64,000 nt of DNA from a virus (IMGVR_UViG_3300037502_002220:32001-96000); one strand, 5' to 3'; counted from the first letter of the stretch, positions 31,641 through 55,628 are shown. Translations and numbers: made by a program. The notes: generated by a model from the letters alone, not told the origin.

Positions 31641-33275
31641 TTATTCATAGCCCATTGCTTCCGATACTACAGGGAATCTTTTTTTAAATAGTTCACGAAT
31701 TTCATTAGCTACTTGACGATGTTCTAACTGTGTATGTGGATCCATGCGTACAGGAAGATAGTGCATCCAAGAACGCACAGAACCTTTCATATACATTGTA
31801 GTACTGGTAGCTAACGGTAATATACTTCTTGCAGTTTCTCTAGATACACCAGCGTCTAACAACGCTTCATACACATCAAAAGTAAGATCTGTAACCATAG
31901 CTACAAGTTCATCAGCTTCGTACTGTTGATCGTGTAATGTTACAATAGGATTAAATTCTTCTTCAGAAGATTGTCTATTGTTCTTAGCTTGCCTGCGTAT
32001 AGAGATAGGCTCTATACCTTGTGCATTTGCATATCTTTGTGAATTATGAGTTATAATATTGTTGGCTACATAATTGTGACTTTTATGGTTTACTTCTAAA
32101 TCATAGGTCATCTCTTCTCCTACATATTCTATTGAAACTATGTGAGAATAACCTATTGTTTTTCTACTCTCTATTGATTCTTTTACACTTTTAAGCTTAT
32201 GTTCTTCTTTTGTTAACAACTGTAAGTTGTTTATATCAAAAGCTAATTCTGGGTACAAATAAACAGGTAAAATATGGTCTACTTCATATAAGTGAAGATC
32301 TTTAAAATTAATATTTTGTCTTACAGCCAAAAGCGCTTTGTGTTTTATACACTCATTTGCAACTTGTTTTCTCCAAGATATAGTATTACCTGTATACAAA
32401 TTAGAATCAGAACCTTTTCTAGAAGCTTTTCTCAAGTTTAATCTTAACTCAAGATTAAACTTTTTACCAAAATTAGGTTGCAATTCAGTAGGTAATCCTT
32501 TATTCCAGGCTTCTGTATACAAGCTTGTTTCACTTTTAGTAAACTGCAAAGAGTGTATCTTTAACCACTTTCTAATTGTGTGATAAGAAACATTAGCTTT
32601 ATCTGCAATATACTGCACTCCATTTCTACTTAGCGATTCTTCTTTAGCTTTAGCTAGCCAGTCTTTATCTTGATAACAAGCTATTCCGTTAACGGCTATG
32701 TAATTACCTACAGCTAAATCACTTAGTTTTTTAAATCCTTCTTTGGTTAAAAACTTGTGGTCTAATGTAGACTTAATATTTTTACCGTTTGCTAAAGTAA
32801 CTTTGTAAACAGGTTTTACTCCTGTCTGAAATACTTCTTTTATTTCTACACTCTTAAATGTTTTTGAATCTTCGTCGTATACTTTCACTCTCGGTGCTCC
32901 GAATCTGTTCCAATAAGAACTCTTGTATCGTTTATACAAGCTTTCTATTGTTACTTTTTTACATTTACGAGCGTCAGGATAAAATAATGTTATCAGACTA
33001 TCTCCTGATATACAAAATTCTTGAAAAAAGAACGAACGATGCCTAAGAATTTGTGCAGCTACATATCTACTGGTTGTAATCTCAACAGTGTAATCTACCA
33101 TCTCAAAAGGAGACCAGTGTTTATGTTTTACAAGATACTGTAACAGCTTAGGTGCAGTATCTAGATTAAGTTGATTCTCTGGATTACTGACCCTAGCTTC
33201 ATACACAATTAGATCTTCTGCTTTATCAATACCTTTTACTAGAGGCATTGTAATAGATACTTCAGATACTTTCAT
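31641..33275 (-). CDS. thyX: Flavin-dependent thymidylate synthase interrupted by an intein
   Basis: HWSPFE, QILRHRSF..QEF|SQRY, RETARSILP, RSWMHY, TQLEHR. Confidence 0.92.
   Translation of the reverse strand: MKVSEVSITMPLVKGIDKAEDLIVYEARVSNPENQLNLDTAPKLLQYLVKHKHWSPFEMVDYTVEITTSRYVAAQILRHRSFFFQEFCISGDSLITLFYPDARKCKKVTIESLYKRYKSSYWNRFGAPRVKVYDEDSKTFKSVEIKEVFQTGVKPVYKVTLANGKNIKSTLDHKFLTKEGFKKLSDLAVGNYIAVNGIACYQDKDWLAKAKEESLSRNGVQYIADKANVSYHTIRKWLKIHSLQFTKSETSLYTEAWNKGLPTELQPNFGKKFNLELRLNLRKASRKGSDSNLYTGNTISWRKQVANECIKHKALLAVRQNINFKDLHLYEVDHILPVYLYPELAFDINNLQLLTKEEHKLKSVKESIESRKTIGYSHIVSIEYVGEEMTYDLEVNHKSHNYVANNIITHNSQRYANAQGIEPISIRRQAKNNRQSSEEEFNPIVTLHDQQYEADELVAMVTDLTFDVYEALLDAGVSRETARSILPLATSTTMYMKGSVRSWMHYLPVRMDPHTQLEHRQVANEIRELFKKRFPVVSEAMGYE
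32043..33014 (-). mobile_element. Intein (324 aa) carrying an HNH homing endonuclease
   Basis: Starts Cys (CISGDS), TLDHKF block B, ends TYDLEV...IITHN before Ser; EVDHILP...NLQLL...H HNH motif. Confidence 0.9.
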
Positions 33276-39389: not shown

Positions 39390-41260
39390 ATAAATAACGT
39401 TAACTGTGATTGTATCAAGCCTAGATCTGTTAAGATCTCTTCCGCCTTACGTTTGTAAAAATTGTAATCTATATTATAAGGTCCTTTAACATACTTATTA
39501 AATATCGTAACCTTAGTAGATTTGATATTACCTAGCGCATGTTTTTTACCTTGACGTTCTTTAAACAAAAAGTTTCCATCTTTGGAAACATAGTACACAT
39601 TCAGTCGCTGTGGTAGTTGTTCATCACCTAAGTACATCGTATAAGATTTATCTATCTTTTGCGCACCACAAAAGTCGTAGATATCACACTTATCAAAAGT
39701 ATCTTGTAATGGTATACCATATACGAGATAGTTCTGCACTGCTTTAGGTACTGCTAAGAAATCTACTTTATTACCTAAGTCTGGATCAGTAACAAACCAA
39801 CCTTTTTCTTTAATGGAACCATCTGTAAACACACCTAGATAGCTATTTACATTAAGCATGTAGAGTGTCTCATAGCTGAAGTGTTCTAGCTCAAAGCCAG
39901 TGTACGCTTCCCAAGCTTTACACTTAGCCATAAATTCATCAAACCTATGCTCTGGTACATAAAGCTCAAAGCCATCTGTATTAGCCATAATAGGTTCACA
40001 GCCTAAGCTAATAGCTTCTTCCAGTAACATCAACAAAAACAACTGACCATTAATTGTAATCCTAAAAAAACTATATGGATCATATACTGGTGAGTTCTCT
40101 TGATTAAAGTTACCAATAGTACCATTAGCTGCTAGTTTAAGCAAGTTAGCTTCTGGTGATTTACCTTGACCAGAGTGTTTAAGTTTAAGTCTTTCTTTGC
40201 GAATATAACCTAGCTGCTCATGTAACTTACATTTTAATGTCTCAGCTAAAGCAGGATAATAACCAGCTACATCTAATGAATGGAATATATACCCTGGTTT
40301 TTGACGATACGTAGATGGTTTATTTTTACTGTGTAAACCACCTTGTTTAAGTTCAAACTGTACGTCAGCTAAAGTTACATTAAAGTGTAATGGTTTTTTA
40401 CGATGATGCCTGTTGACTTTAGTTAGCAGTACTTTAAGTTCGTGTGATTTGAATTTGATGCGATCATCTACAACTTCATAAAAGAAGTTAAAGTCTCTAG
40501 GTTCTGAGATAGGTGTTTCTATCAGCTTAAGTGCTACGTTAAGACCTAGTTTAACAGCATCAGCACTAAGTACAGATTTAGTAAACCCGTACTTTTGTAT
40601 AGCTGCTTTACGTAGATCTATCATCTCTGGAAAAGTAGTTGATTTACCTTGCCAGTTAAATTTCTTGGTGAGTAGATACTTAAGAATACCTAAGTCATGA
40701 ACTGAGTTATACTCTAATAGCTTCATGCGCATGTTATCCTGTACTGGTTCATCTGGTCTAATAGGTAACTCTTGTATAACAGGATAACGTAATTGTACAG
40801 CTAAACCTTTAAGGCTTATCTTCTTAACGATACGTAGCATTCTAGACCAGTACGTAAATAAATCTATATCGTGCCACTTGTGATGCCATTTATATTTCTT
40901 GTAGTCTTCGTTCATAAACCACGTATCATCTGTAATTACCATATCTGAAAACATCTTAATGTCTTCGTTCGTAGCTTCTGGATTAAGACGTACGTAGTTA
41001 AGTACAGGACAATCGTAGTGTATACCATTAAAGGTAACTACTTCAGTTCGTTTGTGATCTAGTAAGTTCAAGTAATGTATAAGTAATTGCCTATCGTCTT
41101 GGTACTTATCGTAAATAAAAACGTGGGTGCTACCATTAAAATCAGTAACACCCACGCAGAAGAAATTTACAAAGCACTCAACGTCTAACCCAACTCTAGT
41201 AGCATTACAGAGTTGCGTATAGGCGTACGGCATGTTTTGAATCATAGAAGGTGTGGTCAT
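39386..41260 (-). CDS. polB: DNA polymerase family B (crAss-like)
   Basis: Exonuclease DVE, FNGIHYD, YNSVHD; polymerase DVAGYYP, KLAANGTIG, ANTDG. Confidence 0.9.
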   Translation of the reverse strand: MTTPSMIQNMPYAYTQLCNATRVGLDVECFVNFFCVGVTDFNGSTHVFIYDKYQDDRQLLIHYLNLLDHKRTEVVTFNGIHYDCPVLNYVRLNPEATNEDIKMFSDMVITDDTWFMNEDYKKYKWHHKWHDIDLFTYWSRMLRIVKKISLKGLAVQLRYPVIQELPIRPDEPVQDNMRMKLLEYNSVHDLGILKYLLTKKFNWQGKSTTFPEMIDLRKAAIQKYGFTKSVLSADAVKLGLNVALKLIETPISEPRDFNFFYEVVDDRIKFKSHELKVLLTKVNRHHRKKPLHFNVTLADVQFELKQGGLHSKNKPSTYRQKPGYIFHSLDVAGYYPALAETLKCKLHEQLGYIRKERLKLKHSGQGKSPEANLLKLAANGTIGNFNQENSPVYDPYSFFRITINGQLFLLMLLEEAISLGCEPIMANTDGFELYVPEHRFDEFMAKCKAWEAYTGFELEHFSYETLYMLNVNSYLGVFTDGSIKEKGWFVTDPDLGNKVDFLAVPKAVQNYLVYGIPLQDTFDKCDIYDFCGAQKIDKSYTMYLGDEQLPQRLNVYYVSKDGNFLFKERQGKKHALGNIKSTKVTIFNKYVKGPYNIDYNFYKRKAEEILTDLGLIQSQLTLFI

Positions 41261-41762: not shown

Positions 41763-41798
41763 ACTGTTTGAGTTAGGTGTTACCCTAACCCAAACAGT
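41763..41798 (-). terminator. Long hairpin with GTAACA loop and U tract after the AAA ATPase
   Basis: actgtttgagttagg/cctaacccaaacagt; A tract at 41757-41763 on +. Confidence 0.7.
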
Positions 41799-41870: not shown

Positions 41871-43304
41871 TCAACCCTTGTAGTCTTCAGAAGAAAACTC
41901 AGAGATAATACCAGGTGCAGCTTTCTGAAGAACAGTGTGCATAACCTTACCAGCGTAGTACTCAAGACCAGCAGGTTTCTCTTGATCTTTGTGAATAAAC
42001 GCATTGTGCTGTGTGATCTGAGAGATGTTAGCTTCGATGAAATCTTCGCTAAGTTCAATCTTGAGTTCTTCAGCAGCTAAGATCAGACGCTTGCACAACT
42101 GCGTAACCTCTGAGCCAGCAATGTTTTCTGGTAAACGATTTGCAAGCTTTTCTGTGTCGATGTTCTCAAAGCCAGCAATGTGACCCAAGTTAAGGTCCAT
42201 GATGGTTTTAGACATCTCCTTAGTACAGTACGGAAACTCCACGATGAAGTCAATCCTACCACTGCGACGGAAGCTCTGGTGAATACGATCGATGTTGTTT
42301 GTAGTAAATACAAAGATAACATCAGTATTCTTCAGGCTTTGACCATCAATAGTGTTAAGGATATCGTTCATATCCGAGTTACGCTCGCCACCGAGAACAT
42401 CGTCAATGTCTTCTGCAAACACTGTAGAGTAACCGTAGTTCTCCAAGTACGGAAGCAGTGTTTCGAGCTGGTTAGAGTTGTGCAGATAGAAGAATGTTCT
42501 ACCAGCATCAATGGATTCTTTACCAAGACGGATAGCAGTTTCTGTTTTACCCGTACCATAAGGGCCATAGAACAACATCTTCTGAGACTTCTTGTTGTGA
42601 AGTTTTACATACGGAAGAATCAGGTTCGTAATCGTGACGTTGGTATCACGACTAAGTACGATGTTCTTAGCTACCTTGAGGTTGATAGGGTGCATAAGCA
42701 AACCAGAACGCAGTTGTTCGATAGTAACAGCTTTCCCTTGCATTACTTTGTTAGTAGCAACTTCTTTGCCGATGTTGCTCAAGAAGGCTTCTGCGGTTGC
42801 TTTGTACTTGTTCTTACACCGAATACCAATCGCACTTGGTGTCAACGTAAGGATAGCATCATCCCATACTTTGATAACCATAGAGCCGATAAATGCAGAT
42901 TCTTCGATTTTGTTACCTTGGTCATCAAAGCCAATAGGAATTTGCATGTACGTAGATTGCGTACGCTCACCAGTGTAATCACGTGGCGACTCGATGAACT
43001 TACCAATAGTCTTGGTAAGCACGCGGTTTACGGTAAGCAAGAAATCGTTCAGGAAGAAATTAGGGTAGTTTTGAGATACTGTGGTGATGTTCTCCCTGTG
43101 TTCAAACAGCACTGTAAGTATTTCAGCACCGTGTAGTAAATCCATGTTCCTAGGTAACAAAATGTACGGTTGATCATGATACAGAGGTTCTTCTGGAATC
43201 TTGTCAACTTTTGACTTGTAGCCGTTAGGCTTCACTGCTCTGAAGAGATCTTTGATAAACTCAAGACCTGCTGCAGATTGAACTTCTTTGACGTTTTTAG
43301 CCAT
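41871..43304 (-). CDS. AAA+ ATPase (classical AAA clade), start re-called at MAKNVK
   Basis: GPYGTGKT, FAEDID, TTN, RRSGRID (second region of homology); codon usage suggests high expression. Confidence 0.88.
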   Translation of the reverse strand: MAKNVKEVQSAAGLEFIKDLFRAVKPNGYKSKVDKIPEEPLYHDQPYILLPRNMDLLHGAEILTVLFEHRENITTVSQNYPNFFLNDFLLTVNRVLTKTIGKFIESPRDYTGERTQSTYMQIPIGFDDQGNKIEESAFIGSMVIKVWDDAILTLTPSAIGIRCKNKYKATAEAFLSNIGKEVATNKVMQGKAVTIEQLRSGLLMHPINLKVAKNIVLSRDTNVTITNLILPYVKLHNKKSQKMLFYGPYGTGKTETAIRLGKESIDAGRTFFYLHNSNQLETLLPYLENYGYSTVFAEDIDDVLGGERNSDMNDILNTIDGQSLKNTDVIFVFTTNNIDRIHQSFRRSGRIDFIVEFPYCTKEMSKTIMDLNLGHIAGFENIDTEKLANRLPENIAGSEVTQLCKRLILAAEELKIELSEDFIEANISQITQHNAFIHKDQEKPAGLEYYAGKVMHTVLQKAAPGIISEFSSEDYKG

Positions 43305-43338: not shown

Positions 43339-43440
43339 TTATTTGTGTGCAACTAATACCAATAACCCACCAGGTTGCTGATAAAAATCACAGTGTACAT
43401 CTTTAGGGGCAATTAGCCAGTGTAAGTAGTATGCTTGCAT
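43339..43440 (-). CDS. Array micro-ORF 50 (33 aa)
   Basis: MQAYYLHWLIAPKDVHCDFYQQPGGLLVLVAHK. Confidence 0.55.
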   Translation of the reverse strand: MQAYYLHWLIAPKDVHCDFYQQPGGLLVLVAHK

Positions 43441-43531
43441 ACTTTAGTATTAAAAAGTAAGAAGTATTACTTAAGTTATTTTCTACTGGAATACGAATAT
43501 ACATGTGGTAATAGAACTTTATTGTGTTCAT
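43403..43531 (-). CDS. Array micro-ORF 49 (42 aa)
   Basis: MNTIKFYYHMYIRIPVENNLSNTSYFLILKYASILLTLANCP. Confidence 0.65.
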   Translation of the reverse strand: MNTIKFYYHMYIRIPVENNLSNTSYFLILKYASILLTLANCP

Positions 43532-43641
43532 ACTTTAAAGTTTAATGTGTAGAAAATAGAAGTCTTTGCTAACAAGAATACAGTTCGTCGTTTCATAGAC
43601 CACCAGTATTTTTTATTCACGTCAATGCTGTATATATTCAT
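43528..43641 (-). CDS. Array micro-ORF 48 (37 aa)
   Basis: MNIYSIDVNKKYWWSMKRRTVFLLAKTSIFYTLNFKV. Confidence 0.6.
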   Translation of the reverse strand: MNIYSIDVNKKYWWSMKRRTVFLLAKTSIFYTLNFKV

Positions 43642-43746
43642 TTACTGTATATATAGTTTTTGAACTAAATAACAATAGTTAAGTTCGTATACTAAACTGC
43701 AGTGAAAAGTAGGATGTACCCACTCCATGTTTTTAAATATCAACAT
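43642..43746 (-). CDS. Array micro-ORF 47 (34 aa)
   Basis: MLIFKNMEWVHPTFHCSLVYELNYCYLVQKLYIQ. Confidence 0.6.
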   Translation of the reverse strand: MLIFKNMEWVHPTFHCSLVYELNYCYLVQKLYIQ

Positions 43747-43850
43747 ATTAACTTATTTACTAATATGAATATTTTTGAAGCAGCGTGTATTCTAATTATA
43801 GTAGTGCGATAATTGTACGCAAACATTGTTGAAATACCTCTTACTAACAT
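43740..43850 (-). CDS. Array micro-ORF 46 (36 aa)
   Basis: MLVRGISTMFAYNYRTTIIRIHAASKIFILVNKLIC. Confidence 0.6.
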   Translation of the reverse strand: MLVRGISTMFAYNYRTTIIRIHAASKIFILVNKLIC

Positions 43851-43951
43851 AACATGTATTTTAACAAGGCTTTTACATCAACTCTATTTTCATTAGCATT
43901 GCTGAAGTAAAAGTCTTGTGCTCTTGTTAATCTTAGATTACTTACCTCCAT
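43844..43951 (-). CDS. Array micro-ORF 45 (35 aa)
   Basis: MEVSNLRLTRAQDFYFSNANENRVDVKALLKYMLC. Confidence 0.65.
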   Translation of the reverse strand: MEVSNLRLTRAQDFYFSNANENRVDVKALLKYMLC

Positions 43952-44058
43952 AGTACATACTTTAAGACTGGTACAAGATCAGCTTCTGGTTGATTTGCAA
44001 AATGTATTAGTTTTTTAGAACCGTAGTTACTTACATCGTAAAGTGTAGTACATCTCAT
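43942..44058 (-). CDS. Array micro-ORF 44 (38 aa)
   Basis: MRCTTLYDVSNYGSKKLIHFANQPEADLVPVLKYVLWR. Confidence 0.65.
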   Translation of the reverse strand: MRCTTLYDVSNYGSKKLIHFANQPEADLVPVLKYVLWR

Positions 44059-44168
44059 ACAATAAACTTTAAGCAGCAGTCGTGAAAAACAAGTTGTCTA
44101 GTAGAAGCTTTATGTAGTTCTTTACAACCAGCAGAGTAGTTTGTGAACCTAAGCATTACAAATGTCAT
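44055..44168 (-). CDS. Array micro-ORF 43 (37 aa)
   Basis: MTFVMLRFTNYSAGCKELHKASTRQLVFHDCCLKFIV. Confidence 0.65.
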   Translation of the reverse strand: MTFVMLRFTNYSAGCKELHKASTRQLVFHDCCLKFIV

Positions 44169-44274
44169 AGTACAGGTATTTAATCATCAATAAATACTTA
44201 GTGTTATACATCTCTCCAGATATAAAACTACGTAGATTTTGTATATGGTATCTATTTAATCTTTCTGTAGGCAT
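44149..44274 (-). CDS. Array micro-ORF 42 (41 aa)
   Basis: MPTERLNRYHIQNLRSFISGEMYNTKYLLMIKYLYYDICNA. Confidence 0.6.
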   Translation of the reverse strand: MPTERLNRYHIQNLRSFISGEMYNTKYLLMIKYLYYDICNA

Positions 44275-44369
44275 TATTGAAATTTTATAATTAATTGATA
44301 ACTATTTCTAACCGTAGGTGAGTAAAACATCATATCAACTACATGGTACCTTACTTTTATTACGTGCAT
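44274..44369 (-). CDS. Array micro-ORF 41 (31 aa)
   Basis: MHVIKVRYHVVDMMFYSPTVRNSYQLIIKFQ. Confidence 0.6.
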   Translation of the reverse strand: MHVIKVRYHVVDMMFYSPTVRNSYQLIIKFQ

Positions 44370-44464
44370 TTTACAATTATTTTTACGTAGTGATCGTAAT
44401 AAGGTTTCCACATGAACTTTCTACTTATACGAGCTCGTATGTATTGTACTTCTTCACTCCACAT
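44360..44464 (-). CDS. Array micro-ORF 40 (34 aa)
   Basis: MWSEEVQYIRARISRKFMWKPYYDHYVKIIVKCT. Confidence 0.55.
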   Translation of the reverse strand: MWSEEVQYIRARISRKFMWKPYYDHYVKIIVKCT

Positions 44465-44567
44465 ATTTTATAGGTATTAGCGCATATGATTTTGTAAATG
44501 TATTTGGTCTGTACAATATCTCAGCGTGAGCTCTATCAAATAGATAAACAGATTTAGCTGTGTTCAT
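44454..44567 (-). CDS. Array micro-ORF 39 (37 aa)
   Basis: MNTAKSVYLFDRAHAEILYRPNTFTKSYALIPIKYVE. Confidence 0.6.
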   Translation of the reverse strand: MNTAKSVYLFDRAHAEILYRPNTFTKSYALIPIKYVE

Positions 44568-44686
44568 CGTTTTTTACATATGATTAAGTAAATAGTATTT
44601 ACATTATCAAAATATAAATCACCGCACGATTCTTTCTTAGAACGGTAATAATACTGATAGTAAAAATCATCTGGTTCAAATTCCAT
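44564..44686 (-). CDS. Array micro-ORF 38 (40 aa)
   Basis: MEFEPDDFYYQYYYRSKKESCGDLYFDNVNTIYLIICKKR. Confidence 0.6.
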   Translation of the reverse strand: MEFEPDDFYYQYYYRSKKESCGDLYFDNVNTIYLIICKKR

Positions 44687-44689
44687 AGT

Positions 44690-44788
44690 TTACAGTTTAT
44701 ATGTTTGTGATACAATAAAATGTAATTTAGTTCCACCAAACTTAATAGTACTAATTACAACTTCTTGCATTAGAAAAAATATGTTCAT
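44690..44788 (-). CDS. Array micro-ORF 37 (32 aa)
   Basis: MNIFFLMQEVVISTIKFGGTKLHFIVSQTYKL. Confidence 0.55.
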   Translation of the reverse strand: MNIFFLMQEVVISTIKFGGTKLHFIVSQTYKL

Positions 44789-44886
44789 AGCTGTTTGATT
44801 ATAACACGGTGCCAGATATCTTCAGAGTAATGTTCTTTATCTACAGACTTGTAAATTGTAAATAACTTTACAAATTGTGTAAGCAT
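44785..44886 (-). CDS. Array micro-ORF 36 (33 aa)
   Basis: MLTQFVKLFTIYKSVDKEHYSEDIWHRVIIKQL. Confidence 0.6.
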   Translation of the reverse strand: MLTQFVKLFTIYKSVDKEHYSEDIWHRVIIKQL

Positions 44887-44887
44887 G

Positions 44888-45010
44888 CTAGTGGTATTTA
44901 AGCATTGTAATAAATGTATGTAGATGATACTCTATTGTTATAGCTGGGTAGCATTTAGGTACGTAGAACGTATAGCTTAGTTCCATAGTGTATATCTTAC
45001 TTGTTTGCAT
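44888..45010 (-). CDS. Array micro-ORF 35 (40 aa; alternative start 44986)
   Basis: MQTSKIYTMELSYTFYVPKCYPAITIEYHLHTFITMLKYH. Confidence 0.6.
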   Translation of the reverse strand: MQTSKIYTMELSYTFYVPKCYPAITIEYHLHTFITMLKYH

Positions 45011-45123
45011 GGTACGTGTTTTGTAATTATACCGAATGATTGCATTGTGTACGTAAACATTAATTTATGCGGTATAAACGTTTTACTGCGATTAGGTACA
45101 CAAATAATTAAAATTACTTCCAT
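44977..45123 (-). CDS. Array micro-ORF 34 (48 aa)
   Basis: MEVILIICVPNRSKTFIPHKLMFTYTMQSFGIITKHVPCKQVRYTLWN. Confidence 0.65.
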   Translation of the reverse strand: MEVILIICVPNRSKTFIPHKLMFTYTMQSFGIITKHVPCKQVRYTLWN

Positions 45124-45227
45124 GATACACGTTTTACTACAATTCTAAACCCAGTATCTAGTATATTTCTATTAGGAAACCTGAGTTCGTGATTAGCTTG
45201 TACAACACCGTTTAGATATATCATCAT
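45114..45227 (-). CDS. Array micro-ORF 33 (37 aa)
   Basis: MMIYLNGVVQANHELRFPNRNILDTGFRIVVKRVSWK. Confidence 0.7.
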   Translation of the reverse strand: MMIYLNGVVQANHELRFPNRNILDTGFRIVVKRVSWK

Positions 45228-45346
45228 CGTATAAACTTTAGTGTTAGTATAAACCTATCTCTTTCTGTCATATTGTTGTGTATATATTGAATAACACTCT
45301 TACCCATACCTCTAAAATCTGGATATATACAAATTAAGATCATCAT
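45224..45346 (-). CDS. Array micro-ORF 32 (40 aa)
   Basis: MMILICIYPDFRGMGKSVIQYIHNNMTERDRFILTLKFIR. Confidence 0.7.
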   Translation of the reverse strand: MMILICIYPDFRGMGKSVIQYIHNNMTERDRFILTLKFIR

Positions 45347-45462
45347 AGTATTTGCTTTAGTGTTATTTTAAATACGTCGTATATAGTTAAGGTGTCTTGC
45401 AAAGATTGAGGACAATCTTTATTTGCATTAAATTTTGGGTAACAAACTATTATGTAAATCAT
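45343..45462 (-). CDS. Array micro-ORF 31 (39 aa)
   Basis: MIYIIVCYPKFNANKDCPQSLQDTLTIYDVFKITLKQIL. Confidence 0.7.
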   Translation of the reverse strand: MIYIIVCYPKFNANKDCPQSLQDTLTIYDVFKITLKQIL

Positions 45463-45578
45463 GATACATGTTTTAAGATAAGTTGAAATCTATCGTCGTA
45501 CACAATATCAGCTACAAGGTTTGCTTCTACCCTACTCTTGTAAGCTGCAGGATTGCGTACAAATATTACTGCTAACAT
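45459..45578 (-). CDS. Array micro-ORF 30 (39 aa)
   Basis: MLAVIFVRNPAAYKSRVEANLVADIVYDDRFQLILKHVS. Confidence 0.7.
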   Translation of the reverse strand: MLAVIFVRNPAAYKSRVEANLVADIVYDDRFQLILKHVS

Positions 45579-45685
45579 GGTATCTGTTTTAAGGTAACAT
45601 GAAGTCTAAGCGCATTGATTGAAGGATGACCTAAACGTATGTGTGAAAATTGTTCAGATTTAATTTGTAGTTCTATGTATTTCAT
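45572..45685 (-). CDS. Array micro-ORF 29 (37 aa)
   Basis: MKYIELQIKSEQFSHIRLGHPSINALRLHVTLKQIPC. Confidence 0.7.
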   Translation of the reverse strand: MKYIELQIKSEQFSHIRLGHPSINALRLHVTLKQIPC

Positions 45686-45701
45686 GGTATTTGTTTTAAT
45701 A

Positions 45702-45818
45702 TTACAGTAATTGTGCTTGTTTTAAGATAACACGATATCTTTCCATACTAATTCCCATACCGTGAATATACGCTTGATAAATCGTATTAGGACTAGTTAT
45801 TATGTCAATGTGAAACAT
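45702..45818 (-). CDS. Array micro-ORF 28 (38 aa)
   Basis: MFHIDIITSPNTIYQAYIHGMGISMERYRVILKQAQLL. Confidence 0.65.
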   Translation of the reverse strand: MFHIDIITSPNTIYQAYIHGMGISMERYRVILKQAQLL

Positions 45819-45918
45819 GTACTTGTTTTAAGATAATAGAAAAGCTCTCACGACCACTGTATCCTAACATTATTACAGTTAAAAAAGCGGCTGTGTATCC
45901 ATATGCGTCAGTTCTCAT
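45805..45918 (-). CDS. Array micro-ORF 27 (37 aa)
   Basis: MRTDAYGYTAAFLTVIMLGYSGRESFSIILKQVHVSH. Confidence 0.7.
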   Translation of the reverse strand: MRTDAYGYTAAFLTVIMLGYSGRESFSIILKQVHVSH

Positions 45919-46019
45919 GGTATTAATTTTAAAGTAATCGAAAAGCAATCATATCCGCTATGTCCTAGTTCGTGTACATAAATATAACTATACGCGTGTC
46001 CATATGCCCATGTGTTCAT
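45915..46019 (-). CDS. Array micro-ORF 26 (34 aa)
   Basis: MNTWAYGHAYSYIYVHELGHSGYDCFSITLKLIP. Confidence 0.7.
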   Translation of the reverse strand: MNTWAYGHAYSYIYVHELGHSGYDCFSITLKLIP

Positions 46020-46126
46020 AACATTAGTTTTAATATTATTGACAAATCATCTTGAACAACTTCGTTTAGTTCTACTTCATTAAAAGGTATTACGCCTTTT
46101 CCAATAAGTAAGTATATCGTATTCAT
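46016..46126 (-). CDS. Array micro-ORF 25 (36 aa)
   Basis: MNTIYLLIGKGVIPFNEVELNEVVQDDLSIILKLML. Confidence 0.7.
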   Translation of the reverse strand: MNTIYLLIGKGVIPFNEVELNEVVQDDLSIILKLML

Positions 46127-46242
46127 AATACAAACTTTATCATAACTAAAAAATCATCATCAAAAATTGGTATTAAACCACGGTCTTTGTTTACTAGCTT
46201 ACAAGAATAAAAAGAGTAACCTACGTAACTTGTTAAGTCCAT
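46123..46242 (-). CDS. Array micro-ORF 24 (39 aa)
   Basis: MDLTSYVGYSFYSCKLVNKDRGLIPIFDDDFLVMIKFVL. Confidence 0.7.
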   Translation of the reverse strand: MDLTSYVGYSFYSCKLVNKDRGLIPIFDDDFLVMIKFVL

Positions 46243-46319
46243 AATATTTTGATTGTGATTAAAACACTGTCGTCTGCGTAAAATATGTGATCTACAAGTG
46301 TTATGTATTTTGTGTCCAT
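46233..46319 (-). CDS. Array micro-ORF 23 (28 aa)
   Basis: MDTKYITLVDHIFYADDSVLITIKILWT. Confidence 0.65.
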   Translation of the reverse strand: MDTKYITLVDHIFYADDSVLITIKILWT

Positions 46320-46426
46320 AATATTAGTTTTAACGTAATTACAAAATCTTCGCACATAGCATTTGAACGTTTGATTTCACGTGCTGTAAGTAATGATTCA
46401 GATACTAGTATTCTGTAATATTCCAC
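46301..46426 (-). CDS. Array micro-ORF 22 (41 aa, GTG start)
   Basis: MEYYRILVSESLLTAREIKRSNAMCEDFVITLKLILWTQNT. Confidence 0.6.
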   Translation of the reverse strand: MEYYRILVSESLLTAREIKRSNAMCEDFVITLKLILWTQNT

Positions 46427-46542
46427 TTTAAGGTTATTAAAACATTATCGTATAAGTTTACACCCCTGTACGAATTAAAATATGTACTAGACATTATTTC
46501 TCGTCCAAGAAGTTTAACTGCTTCTAAACGTCGTATTTCCAT
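46405..46542 (-). CDS. Array micro-ORF 21 (45 aa)
   Basis: MEIRRLEAVKLLGREIMSSTYFNSYRGVNLYDNVLITLKWNITEY. Confidence 0.6.
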   Translation of the reverse strand: MEIRRLEAVKLLGREIMSSTYFNSYRGVNLYDNVLITLKWNITEY

Positions 46543-46667
46543 GTCAGTATAATTAAGAAATCTTTATCCTCAAGTTTTGTTCTTTTTAATCTATCCAGTA
46601 AATGTTCATTACCATGTGTACCAATAGGCATACATAGATCTAACATTGTAAAGTATTTTACTTCCAT
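46524..46667 (-). CDS. Array micro-ORF 20 (47 aa)
   Basis: MEVKYFTMLDLCMPIGTHGNEHLLDRLKRTKLEDKDFLIILTWKYDV. Confidence 0.6.
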   Translation of the reverse strand: MEVKYFTMLDLCMPIGTHGNEHLLDRLKRTKLEDKDFLIILTWKYDV

Positions 46668-46792
46668 CACATGTATTTAACCGTAAAAATAAAATCATTC
46701 TTGACGTAGCTACAATTACTAAATGCTAGGTAATCTAAATACAGTTTACAATCTATACTATGTACCCACATTGTTAAGTCTGTAAATTTCAT
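46667..46792 (-). CDS. Array micro-ORF 19 (41 aa)
   Basis: MKFTDLTMWVHSIDCKLYLDYLAFSNCSYVKNDFIFTVKYM. Confidence 0.7.
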   Translation of the reverse strand: MKFTDLTMWVHSIDCKLYLDYLAFSNCSYVKNDFIFTVKYM

Positions 46793-46911
46793 ACCATGTG
46801 TTTATTTGCTAATTGTAAAATAACCTTAAGATGTGCACAGTTAACATAAGGTGGAATAAACACATCATTATCTAATAAAATGTATTCCCAATCCCTATAT
46901 TCTACTTGCAT
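46789..46911 (-). CDS. Array micro-ORF 18 (40 aa)
   Basis: MQVEYRDWEYILLDNDVFIPPYVNCAHLKVILQLANKHMV. Confidence 0.7.
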   Translation of the reverse strand: MQVEYRDWEYILLDNDVFIPPYVNCAHLKVILQLANKHMV

Positions 46912-47021
46912 ACCATGTACTTTTTTATAAGCCTAAAGTTAGGTTTAAAGAAAGCGTATTTAATAACATAGGGCTCAAGAAACACGTCTGTAGTATAGTT
47001 CCAACCAGTTTCTACTTTCAC
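46902..47021 (-). CDS. Array micro-ORF 17 (39 aa, GTG start)
   Basis: MKVETGWNYTTDVFLEPYVIKYAFFKPNFRLIKKYMVCK. Confidence 0.7.
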   Translation of the reverse strand: MKVETGWNYTTDVFLEPYVIKYAFFKPNFRLIKKYMVCK

Positions 47022-47137
47022 GATATTTGTTTTACAGTAATTAAAGGTAGTACAGTAGGCTTACTTATTCTGCGATCAGCATCATACATTGGATTTGATA
47101 TAGGAAGGTTTACGTAAAAGGTCATAAATGCTATCAT
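47018..47137 (-). CDS. Array micro-ORF 16 (39 aa)
   Basis: MIAFMTFYVNLPISNPMYDADRRISKPTVLPLITVKQIS. Confidence 0.7.
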   Translation of the reverse strand: MIAFMTFYVNLPISNPMYDADRRISKPTVLPLITVKQIS

Positions 47138-47241
47138 AATCTGTATTTTAGTACAAATATTACAATGTCTATCTTAGGTGCATGTTTTAGCTTGTCGTGA
47201 AATCTATAGCCATCAAAGGTATAGTCTAATGAAGCTTTCAT
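47134..47241 (-). CDS. Array micro-ORF 15 (35 aa)
   Basis: MKASLDYTFDGYRFHDKLKHAPKIDIVIFVLKYRL. Confidence 0.7.
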   Translation of the reverse strand: MKASLDYTFDGYRFHDKLKHAPKIDIVIFVLKYRL

Positions 47242-47339
47242 ACAAATATTTTACTGATGACTAAAAGAGATCTACCTGCGTAAGTTGTTTTTAATTTTCC
47301 ACTAGAACTGTCGACCCATAAAATGTATAGCAACCTCAT
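47238..47339 (-). CDS. Array micro-ORF 14 (33 aa)
   Basis: MRLLYILWVDSSSGKLKTTYAGRSLLVISKIFV. Confidence 0.7.
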   Translation of the reverse strand: MRLLYILWVDSSSGKLKTTYAGRSLLVISKIFV

Positions 47340-47437
47340 TCTGCATGTTTTATAGTAATGAATAAACATATTCCACATTTACCAGATCTTCTGTCATTCT
47401 TAAGGTTAGTACCTACGACACTGTGTGTTATAATCAT
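47336..47437 (-). CDS. Array micro-ORF 13 (33 aa)
   Basis: MIITHSVVGTNLKNDRRSGKCGICLFITIKHAE. Confidence 0.7.
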   Translation of the reverse strand: MIITHSVVGTNLKNDRRSGKCGICLFITIKHAE

Positions 47438-47553
47438 TGTATGTGTTTTAAACTAATTCTAAATCTAAGTACAGTAATGACATAGGCTTTAAGATCCATT
47501 TTTAGCACTAAGTCACTGTTCTTTAATGTCTCAACAAATCCTACAAATTTCAT
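47434..47553 (-). CDS. Array micro-ORF 12 (39 aa)
   Basis: MKFVGFVETLKNSDLVLKMDLKAYVITVLRFRISLKHIQ. Confidence 0.7.
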   Translation of the reverse strand: MKFVGFVETLKNSDLVLKMDLKAYVITVLRFRISLKHIQ

Positions 47554-47699
47554 GGTATGTATTTTACAATAGCTCCAAAATTACTTGCGTTATGGTTCAA
47601 GTTTAAATAATCTACAGCTTCGTGTAAACGTATAGTCATGTAGTTATTTATGTACGGTGTAGTAACTGCTCTGTACATCATTAAGTCTATAAATTTCAT
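47550..47699 (-). CDS. Array micro-ORF 11 (49 aa)
   Basis: MKFIDLMMYRAVTTPYINNYMTIRLHEAVDYLNLNHNASNFGAIVKYIP. Confidence 0.7.
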   Translation of the reverse strand: MKFIDLMMYRAVTTPYINNYMTIRLHEAVDYLNLNHNASNFGAIVKYIP

Positions 47700-47821
47700 G
47701 ATACAAGTTTTAATGTAAACAAATGTCCACGACTTTGCCGAGATGCGTTCATTACATAGGTTTTTGCACGTGTCCGATCACTTGTAAATGGGAGGTATGC
47801 AATTATGTGCCTTATTTTCAC
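47696..47821 (-). CDS. Array micro-ORF 10 (41 aa, GTG start)
   Basis: MKIRHIIAYLPFTSDRTRAKTYVMNASRQSRGHLFTLKLVS. Confidence 0.7.
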   Translation of the reverse strand: MKIRHIIAYLPFTSDRTRAKTYVMNASRQSRGHLFTLKLVS

Positions 47822-47925
47822 GGTATTATTTTTAATGTAATTAATAATCTTTTTGGTATCGTACTTCTTATCAATCTTATGTTGAGGAAGTCAGTGTCAT
47901 TTTTAAATATTTGTACAAATTTCAT
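47818..47925 (-). CDS. Array micro-ORF 9 (35 aa)
   Basis: MKFVQIFKNDTDFLNIRLIRSTIPKRLLITLKIIP. Confidence 0.7.
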   Translation of the reverse strand: MKFVQIFKNDTDFLNIRLIRSTIPKRLLITLKIIP

Positions 47926-48053
47926 AAAACTAGCTTTAGCATAACGTAAAATGAATAAGGAGGTACGTTATCTAATTGTAATACCTCAAGTACGTGTTCT
48001 GTTAACGTGCATACAGACTCGTCTTTAACAAGTATCATTTCAATAAATCTCAT
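47922..48053 (-). CDS. Array micro-ORF 8 (43 aa)
   Basis: MRFIEMILVKDESVCTLTEHVLEVLQLDNVPPYSFYVMLKLVL. Confidence 0.7.
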   Translation of the reverse strand: MRFIEMILVKDESVCTLTEHVLEVLQLDNVPPYSFYVMLKLVL

Positions 48054-48074
48054 GATTTAAGTTTTAACAGGGTT

Positions 48075-48290
48075 TTACGTAAGTGGTCCAAAATATCTTC
48101 TGTTAATTTCAGTTAACAGCGCACTTCTTAAAACAATTAATCCTATGTGAAAACTTTTTGCAAGATTGTATTTAAAAATTAATTGCCTGACAATTGAATT
48201 TTCATTAAAAGCTAATGATTCAGACTCTTTAGAAATGCCCATTAATTCTTCTGTAGATAATTCTTTTAGGTATTCAGCTAATGTTTCCAT
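48075..48290 (-). CDS. Unrelated helical 71-aa protein inserted in the array
   Basis: METLAEYLKELSTEEL...; lacks the array motif; flanked by 17-nt near-identical direct repeats. Confidence 0.7.
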   Translation of the reverse strand: METLAEYLKELSTEELMGISKESESLAFNENSIVRQLIFKYNLAKSFHIGLIVLRSALLTEINRRYFGPLT

Positions 48291-48394
48291 GATTTATGTT
48301 TTAAAATAATTTGAAAATGTGTACGTTTTACAGAGTAGCTCAAATCGAGCACTAAAATCTTATAGTCACTTAAGTAATAAACTAAAGTGTTCAC
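48278..48394 (-). CDS. Array micro-ORF 7 (38 aa, GTG start)
   Basis: MNTLVYYLSDYKILVLDLSYSVKRTHFQIILKHKSWKH. Confidence 0.7.
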   Translation of the reverse strand: MNTLVYYLSDYKILVLDLSYSVKRTHFQIILKHKSWKH

Positions 48395-48531
48395 AGTTTA
48401 TGTTTTTGCACAAAAAAGAAGTAATTACAATCTTTAAAATCGTAATCTATAACTGTACATATTTCTGCAAAGTTGATTGTTAAAAGTGTATAGCTATTTT
48501 TGAATATTAATACTATATAAACATTGCTCAT
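48391..48531 (-). CDS. Array micro-ORF 6 (46 aa)
   Basis: MSNVYIVLIFKNSYTLLTINFAEICTVIDYDFKDCNYFFFVQKHKL. Confidence 0.7.
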   Translation of the reverse strand: MSNVYIVLIFKNSYTLLTINFAEICTVIDYDFKDCNYFFFVQKHKL

Positions 48532-48641
48532 AGCTTATATTTTAATAAGATATTGTAATGAAGCATGTAATTACCTCTACCTGTGAGATATACATCTATA
48601 CCATTGTGGCGTATATCTAACAATAATCTGAGTGTGTTCAT
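48528..48641 (-). CDS. Array micro-ORF 5 (37 aa)
   Basis: MNTLRLLLDIRHNGIDVYLTGRGNYMLHYNILLKYKL. Confidence 0.7.
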   Translation of the reverse strand: MNTLRLLLDIRHNGIDVYLTGRGNYMLHYNILLKYKL

Positions 48642-48763
48642 TTTCTGTATTTTATTACAGCCCAGAAATGCATCAATAAACCTGTACCTATATGTCGATG
48701 TAATATTATATTACCATCTGTAGATTTAAAGTTTGATATCTCAAGTACTCCTAAGTAGTTCAT
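48638..48763 (-). CDS. Array micro-ORF 4 (41 aa)
   Basis: MNYLGVLEISNFKSTDGNIILHRHIGTGLLMHFWAVIKYRK. Confidence 0.7.
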   Translation of the reverse strand: MNYLGVLEISNFKSTDGNIILHRHIGTGLLMHFWAVIKYRK

Positions 48764-48879
48764 AATGCCAGTTTTAGTAGTGATAAATAACAAAAATCAA
48801 GCCTTAAAAAGTGGTTTGTTTCATCGTGGTGTGAGTATGTTATACATATGTACATAGAATAAATTTCAGATAGATACAT
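48760..48879 (-). CDS. Array micro-ORF 3 (39 aa)
   Basis: MYLSEIYSMYICITYSHHDETNHFLRLDFCYLSLLKLAL. Confidence 0.6.
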   Translation of the reverse strand: MYLSEIYSMYICITYSHHDETNHFLRLDFCYLSLLKLAL

Positions 48880-48979
48880 AACTAGGTATGTATTTTAATA
48901 TTAAATGAGGTGTTATCTTAGCCATAGACATTGTCATAGAATATACGTTGATGTCTGCAAATAAAAGTACCGTCTTCAT
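48866..48979 (-). CDS. Array micro-ORF 2 (37 aa)
   Basis: MKTVLLFADINVYSMTMSMAKITPHLILKYIPSYVSI. Confidence 0.65.
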   Translation of the reverse strand: MKTVLLFADINVYSMTMSMAKITPHLILKYIPSYVSI

Positions 48980-49080
48980 GATAGAATTTTCATTGTTACA
49001 GGTATGCTTATTTCATCAGCTTGTAGTGTATATAAATAAAGTCTATCGTACTGTGTTATGTATAAAACTTTCATTTTCAT
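48976..49080 (-). CDS. Array micro-ORF 1 (34 aa)
   Basis: MKMKVLYITQYDRLYLYTLQADEISIPVTMKILS. Confidence 0.65.
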   Translation of the reverse strand: MKMKVLYITQYDRLYLYTLQADEISIPVTMKILS

Positions 49081-49101
49081 AGGTAGGTATATTAAACACA
49101 A

Positions 49102-49124
49102 ATGCCCTTGGTTTACAAGGGCAT
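49102..49124 (-). promoter_or_regulatory. Hairpin just upstream of the micro-ORF array (terminator/attenuator or 5' stabiliser)
   Basis: atgcccttg/caagggcat perfect 9-bp stem, followed by TTGTGTTT on -. Confidence 0.55.
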
Positions 49125-49130
49125 CGTGGA

Positions 49131-49300: not shown

Positions 49301-49326
49301 ACCAGGGCTATATTTCAAGCCCTGGT
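49301..49326 (-). terminator. Terminator hairpin with TGAAATAT loop
   Basis: accagggct/agccctggt stem plus U tract; same loop as 54176-54201. Confidence 0.7.
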
Positions 49327-49523: not shown

Positions 49524-50348
49524 TCAATAGAAAAAGATATTAGACATGTACTCTTCTTTTGGAAACTTATCTTTCCAGATATCCTCGTCCATATAGGGTA
49601 AGTTATCGGGAACAGCCATTTTCCACACATTACCTACAGTATCGTAGATACCGTACTTGTTTGGTTTCTTCTTCTTTACAGGTTGTGTTTTACCACCCAT
49701 CTCTGCAGTAGTCCATGCAATCTCTTGAATATCTGTACGAGTATCTAAGTTCTCAGCATGATCTGCAGCGATTGTAGTCCACTCTGCTTTTGTAGGAAAC
49801 AGGAATACAGCGTGACCTTTGATAGCTGGGTTATACCAGAACCACCACTGACCGTTGTACTCTTTCATGATATACGGCATTGGTTTACCGTGCATATCAT
49901 TTAACCAGTTGATGTACGAGATTGCGTTCAAGATCTCAAGGTTAATCGCTGGGCGATCATCGCGACCATAGTTTTGATCATTAGCGAGATCTCTTCCTGT
50001 CATATAACAGAAAGCATCAAACTGGTTGAACGTAACTACGGTATCTGCTGATGCAACAAGTGGAAAACACTCTGCAGGTAACGGTACAAAAGTACCTAAA
50101 TCAATGTCTTTGTCGCTGATAGTCTTTTGCTCAAAAGCACGTTGTGATGTAGCTACAGCAACTACAAACGGTTCTACAGGTTTTCTGTTGACCACATTAA
50201 TAATTGCAATAGCATTACGGTGTACTTCTTCAAGCTCTGGTGTGTTGAAATACTTACGCATTTTAGGTAATGCTTGTGCATACCATTTACCAAAATCTTT
50301 AGAAGAAGCTTTTTGTTGAACTTGATCTTTAAATTCTTGTACAGTCAT
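49524..50348 (-). CDS. FGE-sulfatase/SUMF1-family (C-type lectin fold) domain protein, divergent
   Basis: VTFNQF, RPAINL, PTKAEW, TQPVKKKKPNKYGIYDTVGNVW. Confidence 0.75.
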   Translation of the reverse strand: MTVQEFKDQVQQKASSKDFGKWYAQALPKMRKYFNTPELEEVHRNAIAIINVVNRKPVEPFVVAVATSQRAFEQKTISDKDIDLGTFVPLPAECFPLVASADTVVTFNQFDAFCYMTGRDLANDQNYGRDDRPAINLEILNAISYINWLNDMHGKPMPYIMKEYNGQWWFWYNPAIKGHAVFLFPTKAEWTTIAADHAENLDTRTDIQEIAWTTAEMGGKTQPVKKKKPNKYGIYDTVGNVWKMAVPDNLPYMDEDIWKDKFPKEEYMSNIFFY

Positions 50349-50374
50349 GATTGTAATTTTAGTTAAAAAGAGAA

Positions 50375-50390
50375 GGGAGTGTTACCTCCC
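50375..50390 (-). terminator. Hairpin with GTAACA loop
   Basis: gggag-tgttac-ctccc on +, followed by pyrimidine/U tract on -. Confidence 0.5.
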
Positions 50391-50418
50391 CTCTCCAAAT
50401 GCTTACTGAAAAAGTGTC

Positions 50419-55350: not shown

Positions 55351-55497
55351 TGTACATGAATTTATGTGTGAGTAATAAAAATGACACAGGCATCACTTCT
55401 TTAATCGTATCACGTTGTGCGTGTACAGTTAGAGAGATAAGCATCAGTGCGAATAGAATAATGTTTTTCATGATTACGCTTTTATATTAAATAATAG

Positions 55498-55564
55498 TGG
55501 TCAAAACAGGAATCGAACCTGTATCTAGATGTTATCTAGGTTTTAGCCATTAAACTATTTGACC
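55498..55564 (-). tRNA. tRNA-like RNA with reduced anticodon arm (no assignable anticodon)
   Basis: GGTCAAA/TTTGACC acceptor stem, GTTT/AAAC D stem with GG loop, ACAGG-TTCGATT-CCTGT T arm; anticodon loop only TAACA. Confidence 0.7.
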
Positions 55565-55628
55565 ATAAAGGGACACCTGCTTAGGAAACAATACCCTCCA
55601 TAAAATATTGTAAGCGGTGTCCCTAATC

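Follow-up and report, generated by a model that had tools for sequence, protein, structure and literature searches.

A chained array of about fifty probable micro-protein genes with a dual-coded junction in a large phage genome

Translationally coupled genes, in which the stop codon of one cistron overlaps the start codon of the next (ATGA or TGATG), are known as pairs or short operons of ordinary genes. Libraries of the prochlorosin type are built from many small precursor genes that combine a conserved recognition segment with a highly variable remainder. For phages, the excerpted passages of a survey of the crAss-like group describe many members with blocks of short genes that lack homologues and are suspected to target host defence (Yutin et al. 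2021, PMC7886860), and those of a study of jumbophages describe tandem arrays of more than 30 genes, read there as tandem duplication (2017, PMC5646251). Concerning initiation, it was shown for Flavobacterium johnsoniae that A at -3, -6, -12, and -13 and an A-run from -14 to -11 relative to the start codon promote translation (Baez et al. 2019, PMC6847099). The locus described in this article is compared with all of these systems. It is a 5.7-kb array of about 50 chained micro-protein genes, followed on the same strand by the gene of an AAA+ ATPase, in a viral genome from a subsurface metagenome. The stretch of DNA analysed (the window; 64,000 nucleotides, nt) comprises bases 32001-96000 of the 105,444-nt IMG/VR virus record IMGVR_UViG_3300037502_002220, which is estimated to be 95% complete. 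As judged from its tiling, its frame-specific selection, and its pattern of insertions and deletions (indels), the array very probably consists of translated genes whose peptides are under selection. Standard gene calling leaves this part, ~5% of the genome, nearly empty despite ~50 genes under selection.

Anatomy of the array and its junctions

With ATG or GTG as start codons and a cutoff of 25 amino acids (aa), 53 open reading frames (ORFs) cover 96.7% of the - strand between positions 43300 and 49200. The + strand of the same stretch holds 16 ORFs with a cover of 32%. Two null sets, made of 300 mononucleotide shuffles and 300 first-order Markov resamples, average 15-16 ORFs that cover 26-28% of the sequence, and do not exceed 29 ORFs or 44%. 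Of the 53 ORFs, two lie within others and are probably not genes, because the proportion of nonsynonymous differences (pN) to a sister phage exceeds that of synonymous ones (pS) in both. Another one encodes a 71-aa protein that does not belong to the family. This leaves ~50 family units with a length of 32-49 aa and a median of 39 aa. The peptides are high in I, L, Y, H, and C and low in A, G, and E, and they carry a mean net charge of ~+2.

The 50 junctions between successive units sort into 25 exact 4-nt overlaps of the form xTGA (ATGA or GTGA), 15 junctions in the same register with another fourth base, five other overlaps, one abutting pair, and four gaps of at most 21 nt. Overlap or abutment on the same strand, by which translationally coupled genes are recognised, thus extends to 25 exact and 20 other overlaps and one abutting pair, next to the four short gaps. 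Only 0.2 exact overlaps are expected, and the null maximum is 3. In the 15 same-register junctions, the stop position is read through as TGG, TGC, or TGT. A chain of frames linked by ATGA requires a start-to-start spacing of 2 mod 3, and this spacing is observed in 40 of 52 cases (p = 1.5e-10), the distance between the starts of full units being ~100 to 146 nt. The junction is marked by a motif of ~30 nt that recurs every 100-137 nt; the repeat families at this place (D1-D12) are degenerate, with identities of 62-89%. An earlier reading of the window from the sequence alone (the sequence-only reading) had proposed an array far beyond chance, and the null sets agree, since shuffled sequence does not tile equally (15-16 vs 53 ORFs). 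Its 25 exact stop-start overlaps were recovered as well; its class of junctions with a differing fourth base is real, with 15 members found instead of the 13 claimed.

At the protein level, the units share a C-terminal pair of a hydrophobic residue and Lys, which is present in 42 of the 50 ORFs of the window, in 47 of 56 in the sister phage (L002), and in 25 of 29 in a second lineage (L065). In carriers of this motif, the Lys is preceded directly by L, I, or V and, at a distance of 5-7 residues, by F or Y (by Asp in the second lineage); the number of residues that follow it is most often three. At the nucleotide level, the profile before each ATG consists of T at -13, A at -12 to -9, T-A at -4/-3, and pyrimidines at -2/-1; herein, A is found at -12 to -9 in 33-46 of 53 units and at -3 in 34 of 53. 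Codons TTA, CTA, ATA, and GTA specify the residue before the Lys, and ATA, GTA, GCA, and CTA the second residue after it. According to a codon test, the third-position A (nt -12 and -3) is retained across differing residues, and a comparable TAAA(A)-N7-9-ATG signal, with no Shine-Dalgarno sequence, precedes the ordinary genes of the phage. Hence, the start signal of the following gene largely makes up the final five codons of each peptide. Likewise, the M-[KN] start of the peptides largely follows from ATGA. The upstream F/Y or Asp and the alternating hydrophobic residues look protein-level, since their codons vary. Peptide positions 3-9 are enriched in hydrophobic residues (0.5-0.8 vs 0.42 in the interiors).

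The junction is dual-coded, meaning that it serves as the end of one protein and as the start signal for the next gene. In the example listed in Table 1, the protein end F-x-[ILV]-x-L-K-x-[IV]-x coincides with an A-rich start signal (T at -13, A at -12 to -9, T-A at -4/-3) and with an ATGA that is both stop and next start. Throughout the array, the features of Bacteroidia-type initiation, namely no Shine-Dalgarno sequence, an A-run, and A at -3, are found at the junctions, the A-run being offset by 1-2 nt, and the predicted local RNA accessibility rises slightly at -15 to -6 (0.53-0.55 vs a mean of 0.46). The C-terminal motif of the sequence-only reading is real and kept in both relatives. As far as the sequence can show, none of the three refuting outcomes listed in that reading materialised. 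Of the 'constant docking ends' proposed there, the shared ends stand; they are at least partly a nucleotide-level start signal, so the docking part is weakened.

Within 48051-48304, the gene of the 71-aa insert is bracketed by two 17-nt copies of the junction motif, identical at 16 of 17 positions. The sister phage has a 40-aa unit at this position instead, a freshwater contig (X4 record 16) spans the insert, and Pfam gives no match to the encoded protein. No ORF feeds into the downstream one of the two motif copies.

The four-A run of the junction puts AAA in both the old and the next frame, and a tRNA-Lys slipping back by one base would enter the next frame, which reads open from the A-run to its own ATG. 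Together with the 15 junctions that are read through, this might allow for a single giant protein, or for a small number of fusion proteins, if stop codons were recoded or ribosomes slipped by -1 at one A-run after another. Such fusion is considered extremely improbable: fifty serial frameshifts would be expected to give a vanishing yield, and each unit keeps its own ATG or GTG together with a start signal. Stop-codon recoding is excluded, the longest ORF being 120 aa under code 4 and 104 aa with TAG read as Q; the neighbouring genes use the standard code, under which (code 11) the flanking genes are intact. A suppressor tRNA was not found, and the sole tRNA-like element of the window has no normal anticodon loop.

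Selection on the peptides and turnover of units

The sister phage L002 is represented by a 102-kb contig with an ATPase that is 93% identical and a syntenic array of ~56 units (78-88% nt identity). For 40 orthologous pairs between the window and this contig, pS is 0.29 and pN is 0.11, which corresponds to a ratio of nonsynonymous to synonymous substitution rates (dN/dS) of ~0.32. In the 21 ungapped pairs, dN/dS is 0.29 in frame compared with 0.79 and 0.88 in the other frames. The same holds for the interiors alone, after removal of the ends, with 0.31 in frame and 0.91 and 1.02 out of frame. The array has a pS of 0.27, close to the 0.31 of the ATPase, the dN/dS of the ATPase being 0.09. These comparisons indicate that the peptide interiors are under moderate purifying selection and that they evolve roughly three times faster than the ATPase at nonsynonymous sites.

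The indels between the two phages point in the same direction at two scales. Small indels are multiples of three in 14 of 19 cases (p = 4e-4), so the relatives do not display the frame-breaking pattern that the sequence-only reading had named as evidence against its proposal. Large indels (n = 10) are unit-sized and mostly 2 mod 3; in six of the ten, a breakpoint falls no more than 6 nt away from a unit start (p = 3e-4). Accordingly, copy numbers differ by whole units between relatives, with ~50 in the window, 56 in L002, and 29-35 in L065. The label 'hypervariable', also from the earlier reading, is appropriate among paralogues and fails among orthologues, where 42 of 50 interiors are recognisable at a dN/dS of 0.3. 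Between the window and L002, A sites differ least (15% vs 28-34% at G and C) and transitions dominate. A diversity-generating retroelement is excluded, as there is no PF00078 in the 105-kb record and no adenine-biased mutation.

A ~30-nt motif with a period of 100-137 nt and with conserved third-codon positions might also be expected from a non-coding array of ~115-nt repeats (binding sites, promoters, or structured RNAs), with the ORFs present by accident. The mod-3 rule of spacing, the frame-specific dN/dS, the indels in multiples of three, and open frames over 97% of AT-rich DNA all speak against it, and the unpaired probability rises only slightly at the junction. Rfam (at the gathering score), Tandem Repeats Finder (TRF), and ARAGORN report nothing in the array; on these grounds, a known RNA family or tRNA array (Rfam, ARAGORN) and a simple tandem repeat (TRF) are excluded. 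A CRISPR-like repeat array is likewise rejected, given the degeneracy of the repeats (62-89% identity) and the coding signal. A non-coding array is disfavoured and very improbable.

The second lineage is composed of the contigs L065, L066, and L067, which represent one phage with an ATPase 50% identical to that of the window. It carries ~35 micro-ORFs of 29-61 aa with the same junction, located between an FGE-sulfatase-like gene region and the AAA ATPase, and its C-terminal motif reads D-x-[ILV]-L-[TI]-L-K-[HY]-I. When only interiors are compared, 42 of the 50 window units have an orthologue in L002, and no interior of L065 matches one of the window. Within a genome, paralogue hits of interiors at E < 1e-3 number two in the window, four in L002, and two in L065. 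The junction motif and the unit size are common to nearly all units. Two single units deserve mention. In L065, adjacent 71-nt stretches at 6034-6307 (+) are 86% identical, a recent internal duplication that gave neighbours with near-identical middles. In L002, an odd array unit at 8652-8780 (+) encodes a 42-aa peptide whose middle is hydrophobic and resembles a membrane helix and whose tail is basic; the window has no such unit, and the length of this one is 0 mod 3.

No match to the array was obtained in 50,697 GenBank phage records by megablast and blastn. DNA scans with three motifs, run twice on IMG/VR (62 and 11 loci) and once on 185,579 species genomes (25 loci), gave chains only in the lineage of the window and in that of L065, the other loci having at most eight chained small ORFs. 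Because these scans recovered only these contigs and the GenBank phages gave no match, the array appears, as far as seen, to be confined to a small clade.

Transcription unit, neighbouring genes, and proposed role

The phage is classed as crAss-like. Its major capsid protein matches a PHROG head-protein family and is ~25% identical to those of crAss-like phages; its genome also encodes giant proteins of 2186, 2533, and 2780 aa and has a two-strand layout, both typical of this group. Sequencing runs from freshwater and wetland, produced by other studies, contain contigs with 85-99% identity to portions of the array and its flanking DNA. The replication genes (DNA polymerase, helicases, thymidylate synthase) are encoded on the same strand as the array. 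The array is separated from the ATPase gene by 34 nt in the window and by 11 nt in L065, the ATPase gene having the same position in both array-bearing lineages. By PDB sequence matches, the closest solved relatives of the ATPase are p97/CDC48/VAT and the proteasomal Rpt subunits, all of which are protein unfoldases. Terminator-like hairpins flank the array and the ATPase gene on both sides (Table 1), and the terminator scan found none inside the array or between the array and the ATPase; array and ATPase gene would, in this arrangement, share one transcript. A scan for sigma-70-like promoters gave fewer sites than in shuffles and is, hence, uninformative. Ordinary - strand genes of the phage are often preceded by a GC-rich hairpin, a T-run, and TAAA-N9-ATG within ~20 nt (50369-50396, 49301-49326, and 41121-41157), which suggests tightly packed terminator and start modules.

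The explanation put forward for the locus is a battery of micro-proteins. The ~50 micro-protein genes and, after them, the AAA+ ATPase gene would form one long polycistronic unit, in which the Bacteroidia-type, Shine-Dalgarno-less start signal of each micro-gene sits in the last five codons of the preceding gene. With stop and start codons overlapping or close to each other, ribosomes may pass between cistrons by termination-reinitiation, helped by the signal that each unit has of its own. The family would have grown by tandem duplication, with whole units gained and lost through breakpoints at the conserved junction and with interiors diverging until paralogues became unalignable. The selected product would be the peptides themselves, presumably small, individually constrained proteins made in the replication phase. 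They would most likely be modulators or binders of host or phage components; it may also be that the unfoldase-type ATPase, presumably transcribed together with them, has them as clients or adaptors. Taken as a whole, including growth by unit-wise recombination and a role in trans, this explanation is considered slightly more probable than not.

Several observations weigh against it. The composition of the peptides resembles that of random AT-rich ORFs. The common descent of all units rests mainly on the junction, because only two to four paralogue pairs per genome are seen from the interiors. Relatives of the ATPase at 37% identity have ordinary genes upstream and no array, and a search of sequencing runs lists no RNA runs that hold the stretch. 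The two AlphaFold2 models obtained conflict: one member, modelled with an 80-row family alignment, has a strand at residues 2-10 paired with a strand at residues 27-35 (mean predicted local distance difference test score, pLDDT, 73.6), and a neighbouring member, modelled with a 20-row alignment, has three helices (pLDDT 65.3), so no fold is claimed. A complex prediction for two neighbouring peptides scored 0.02, which counts neither for nor against binding. Database comparisons likewise provide no homologue or family hint that would suggest a function. In PHROGs, none of 80 members matches at E <= 0.01; in Pfam, none of 10 proteins scanned reaches a family cutoff, with two weak matches at E > 0.01; and the PDB has no sequence match to members. 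A 38-position family profile found nothing at E <= 0.001 among 1.84 billion representative proteins, a profile of this length being too short to inform. One member occurs in the ESM Atlas as an exact copy, without a model and without a usable similar entry.

A random-like composition and the lack of a recognised family or fold would suit a selfish or near-neutral amplification of cassettes by unequal crossing-over, in which translated ORFs yield peptides that, for the most part, do little or nothing (a gene nursery, or junk that the phage tolerates). So would paralogue interiors that are unalignable and completely turned over between lineages, and whole units that come and go at the junction. 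Such a process is set against an interior dN/dS of 0.3 in frame compared with ~0.9-1.0 out of frame, frame-preserving indels, and the retention of 42 of 50 units between two phages at a pS of ~0.27. In addition, an array of 4-6 kb has been kept in two lineages, and the capsid should limit genome length. Near-neutral amplification is, on this evidence, unlikely.

The position of the ATPase gene allows for another reading, namely that the array is a cis-acting translated leader, a 50-cistron relay or timer that sets the timing and amount of the ATPase and releases the peptides as by-products. The absence of a terminator before the ATPase in both lineages, with gaps of 34 and 11 nt, and junction signals that are more conserved than the peptide interiors are compatible with this. 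A pure relay, however, has no need for purifying selection on interior amino acids, and 5.7 kb would be a costly leader. The ATPase gene has its own start signal and is not overlapped, and the ATPase does not need the array, given that its relatives at 37% identity work without one. A leader function is, therefore, regarded as distinctly unlikely.

On the upstream side, the conserved neighbour is a protein with an FGE-sulfatase domain, whose identity to the relatives in the two lineages is 96% and 59%; small ordinary genes and hairpins lie between its gene and the array. The FGE-sulfatase fold is often a variable ligand-binding scaffold. This protein and the AAA+ ATPase as conserved neighbours, and the many diverse small peptides with a recognition-like motif and a variable core, would be in line with a precursor library for ribosomally synthesized and post-translationally modified peptides (RiPPs). 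In such a library, a processing or modifying enzyme would recognise a C-terminal follower (and the N-terminal strand), and, as with prochlorosins, the product would be the variable core. A scan of the 18 larger window proteins in the neighbourhood gave no match to LanM, YcaO, radical-SAM, or protease families; the matches obtained are FGE-sulfatase-like, AAA+, cell-wall hydrolase, DNA polymerase, helicases, and phosphoesterase, and several proteins have none. Furthermore, the cores are devoid of a conserved Cys, Ser, or Thr pattern, the motif is partly explained by the nucleotide-level start signal, and the hairpins and ordinary genes set the FGE-like gene apart from the array. A RiPP-like library is, hence, quite improbable.

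Two further elements of the window were recorded. An ORF of 544 aa at 31641-33275 (-) matches thymidylate synthase at its ends (residues 19-88 and 411-541), and between these the matches are to HNH endonuclease families and to part of a terminase-large-subunit family; from these matches, it looks like an intein or an inserted homing-endonuclease domain. The tRNA-like element at 55495-55567 (-) scores 50.3 bits for the Rfam tRNA family and is not called by ARAGORN. It folds into a 7-bp acceptor stem, a D arm, and a T arm, its anticodon arm being a 6-bp stem with a 3-nt loop and no normal anticodon loop.

Table 1. Positions of the array and of associated features in the window
Feature	Position	Strand	Basis
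Array: ~50 chained micro-protein genes, one 71-aa insert, and two nested, probably spurious ORFs	43339..49080	-	ORF lists, shuffles, junction classes, dN/dS by frame, indel pattern
Example of a dual-coded junction	45459..45494	-	Weight table, codon test, repeat families D1-D12, published Bacteroidia initiation positions
71-aa non-family gene inside the array	48075..48290	-	Absent from L002
Nested 29-aa ORF, probably not a gene	46609..46698	-	pN 0.10 vs pS 0.06 against L002; junction motif absent
Nested 45-aa GTG ORF, probably not a gene	44599..44736	-	pN 0.17 vs pS 0.11 against L002
AAA+ ATPase, 477 aa, classical p97/CDC48/Rpt-like clade	41871..43304	-	Pfam PF00004, PDB matches, synteny, terminator scan
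Terminator-like hairpin just before the first micro-ORF; likely 5' limit of the transcription unit	49101..49125	-	Terminator scan
Terminator-like hairpin following the ATPase gene; likely 3' limit of the unit formed by array and ATPase gene	41763..41798	-	Terminator scan
FGE-sulfatase-domain protein, 274 aa, conserved neighbour upstream of the array	49524..50348	-	Pfam PF03781 (E 1e-9), tblastn synteny

Significance and comparison with described systems

The micro-protein battery could take part in host takeover or counter-defence, or work together with the unfoldase. Decoys, takeover peptides, and subunits of a split repeat protein, all suggested in the sequence-only reading, are candidate roles. 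Should arrays of this kind turn out to be recurrent in large phages, a sizeable part of what phages encode, and of the micro-proteome, currently escapes notice. In the junction, nature offers a clear example of a single sequence acting as protein end, Shine-Dalgarno-less start signal, and unit boundary, and the locus offers a tractable system for termination-reinitiation in Bacteroidia-type translation and for the origin and turnover of small genes. A bolder version would treat the junction as a three-in-one module (stop/start with initiation signal, coded terminal strand, and recombination site) that reshuffles ~50 micro-proteins with shared ends, each with a different middle that acts on a different host or phage partner and is perhaps loaded or cleared by the AAA+ unfoldase. 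Together with any analogous arrays in other large phages, it would define a widespread, undescribed class of phage micro-protein batteries; in this full form, it is a long shot.

The claim of the sequence-only reading that no described system has this architecture comes near the truth for the exact arrangement; it goes too far in that short-gene blocks (PMC7886860) and jumbophage tandem arrays (PMC5646251) are in print, as the excerpts of both articles attest. With the crAss-like phages, the phage of the array shares the runs of short orphan genes and a distantly (~25%) similar major capsid protein. A single family of ~50 units of ~39 aa, a dual-coded junction, or chained ATGA overlaps do not occur in the excerpted passages of PMC7886860, whose phages come from the gut, whereas the phage of the array comes from subsurface and freshwater. 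The array genes of the jumbophages are, in the excerpts of PMC5646251, 'very similar' to one another; in contrast, the interiors of the array are unalignable, and the junction alone is shared.

With coupled overlapping gene pairs, the array has in common the same 4-nt stop-start overlap on the same strand, here at 25 of 50 junctions. It departs from them in chaining ~50 cistrons and in a start signal without Shine-Dalgarno sequence, the coupling itself being putative and read from the sequence. Unlike in prochlorosins, no modifying enzyme was found among the scanned neighbours, the conserved segment sits at the C-terminus and is partly nucleotide-level, and the units form a chain within a single putative operon.

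The initiation region of Bacteroidia (Baez et al. 2019, PMC6847099) likewise has no Shine-Dalgarno sequence, an upstream A-run, and A at -3. Its published A-run spans -14 to -11, with -12 and -13 being most critical, and that of the array lies 1-2 nt nearer to the start. A further difference is the conserved T at -13. Among the tandem small-gene families of large phages, the distinguishing features of the array are its tiny units, its high copy number, its chained overlaps, and a junction that is at the same time protein end, start signal, and unit boundary.

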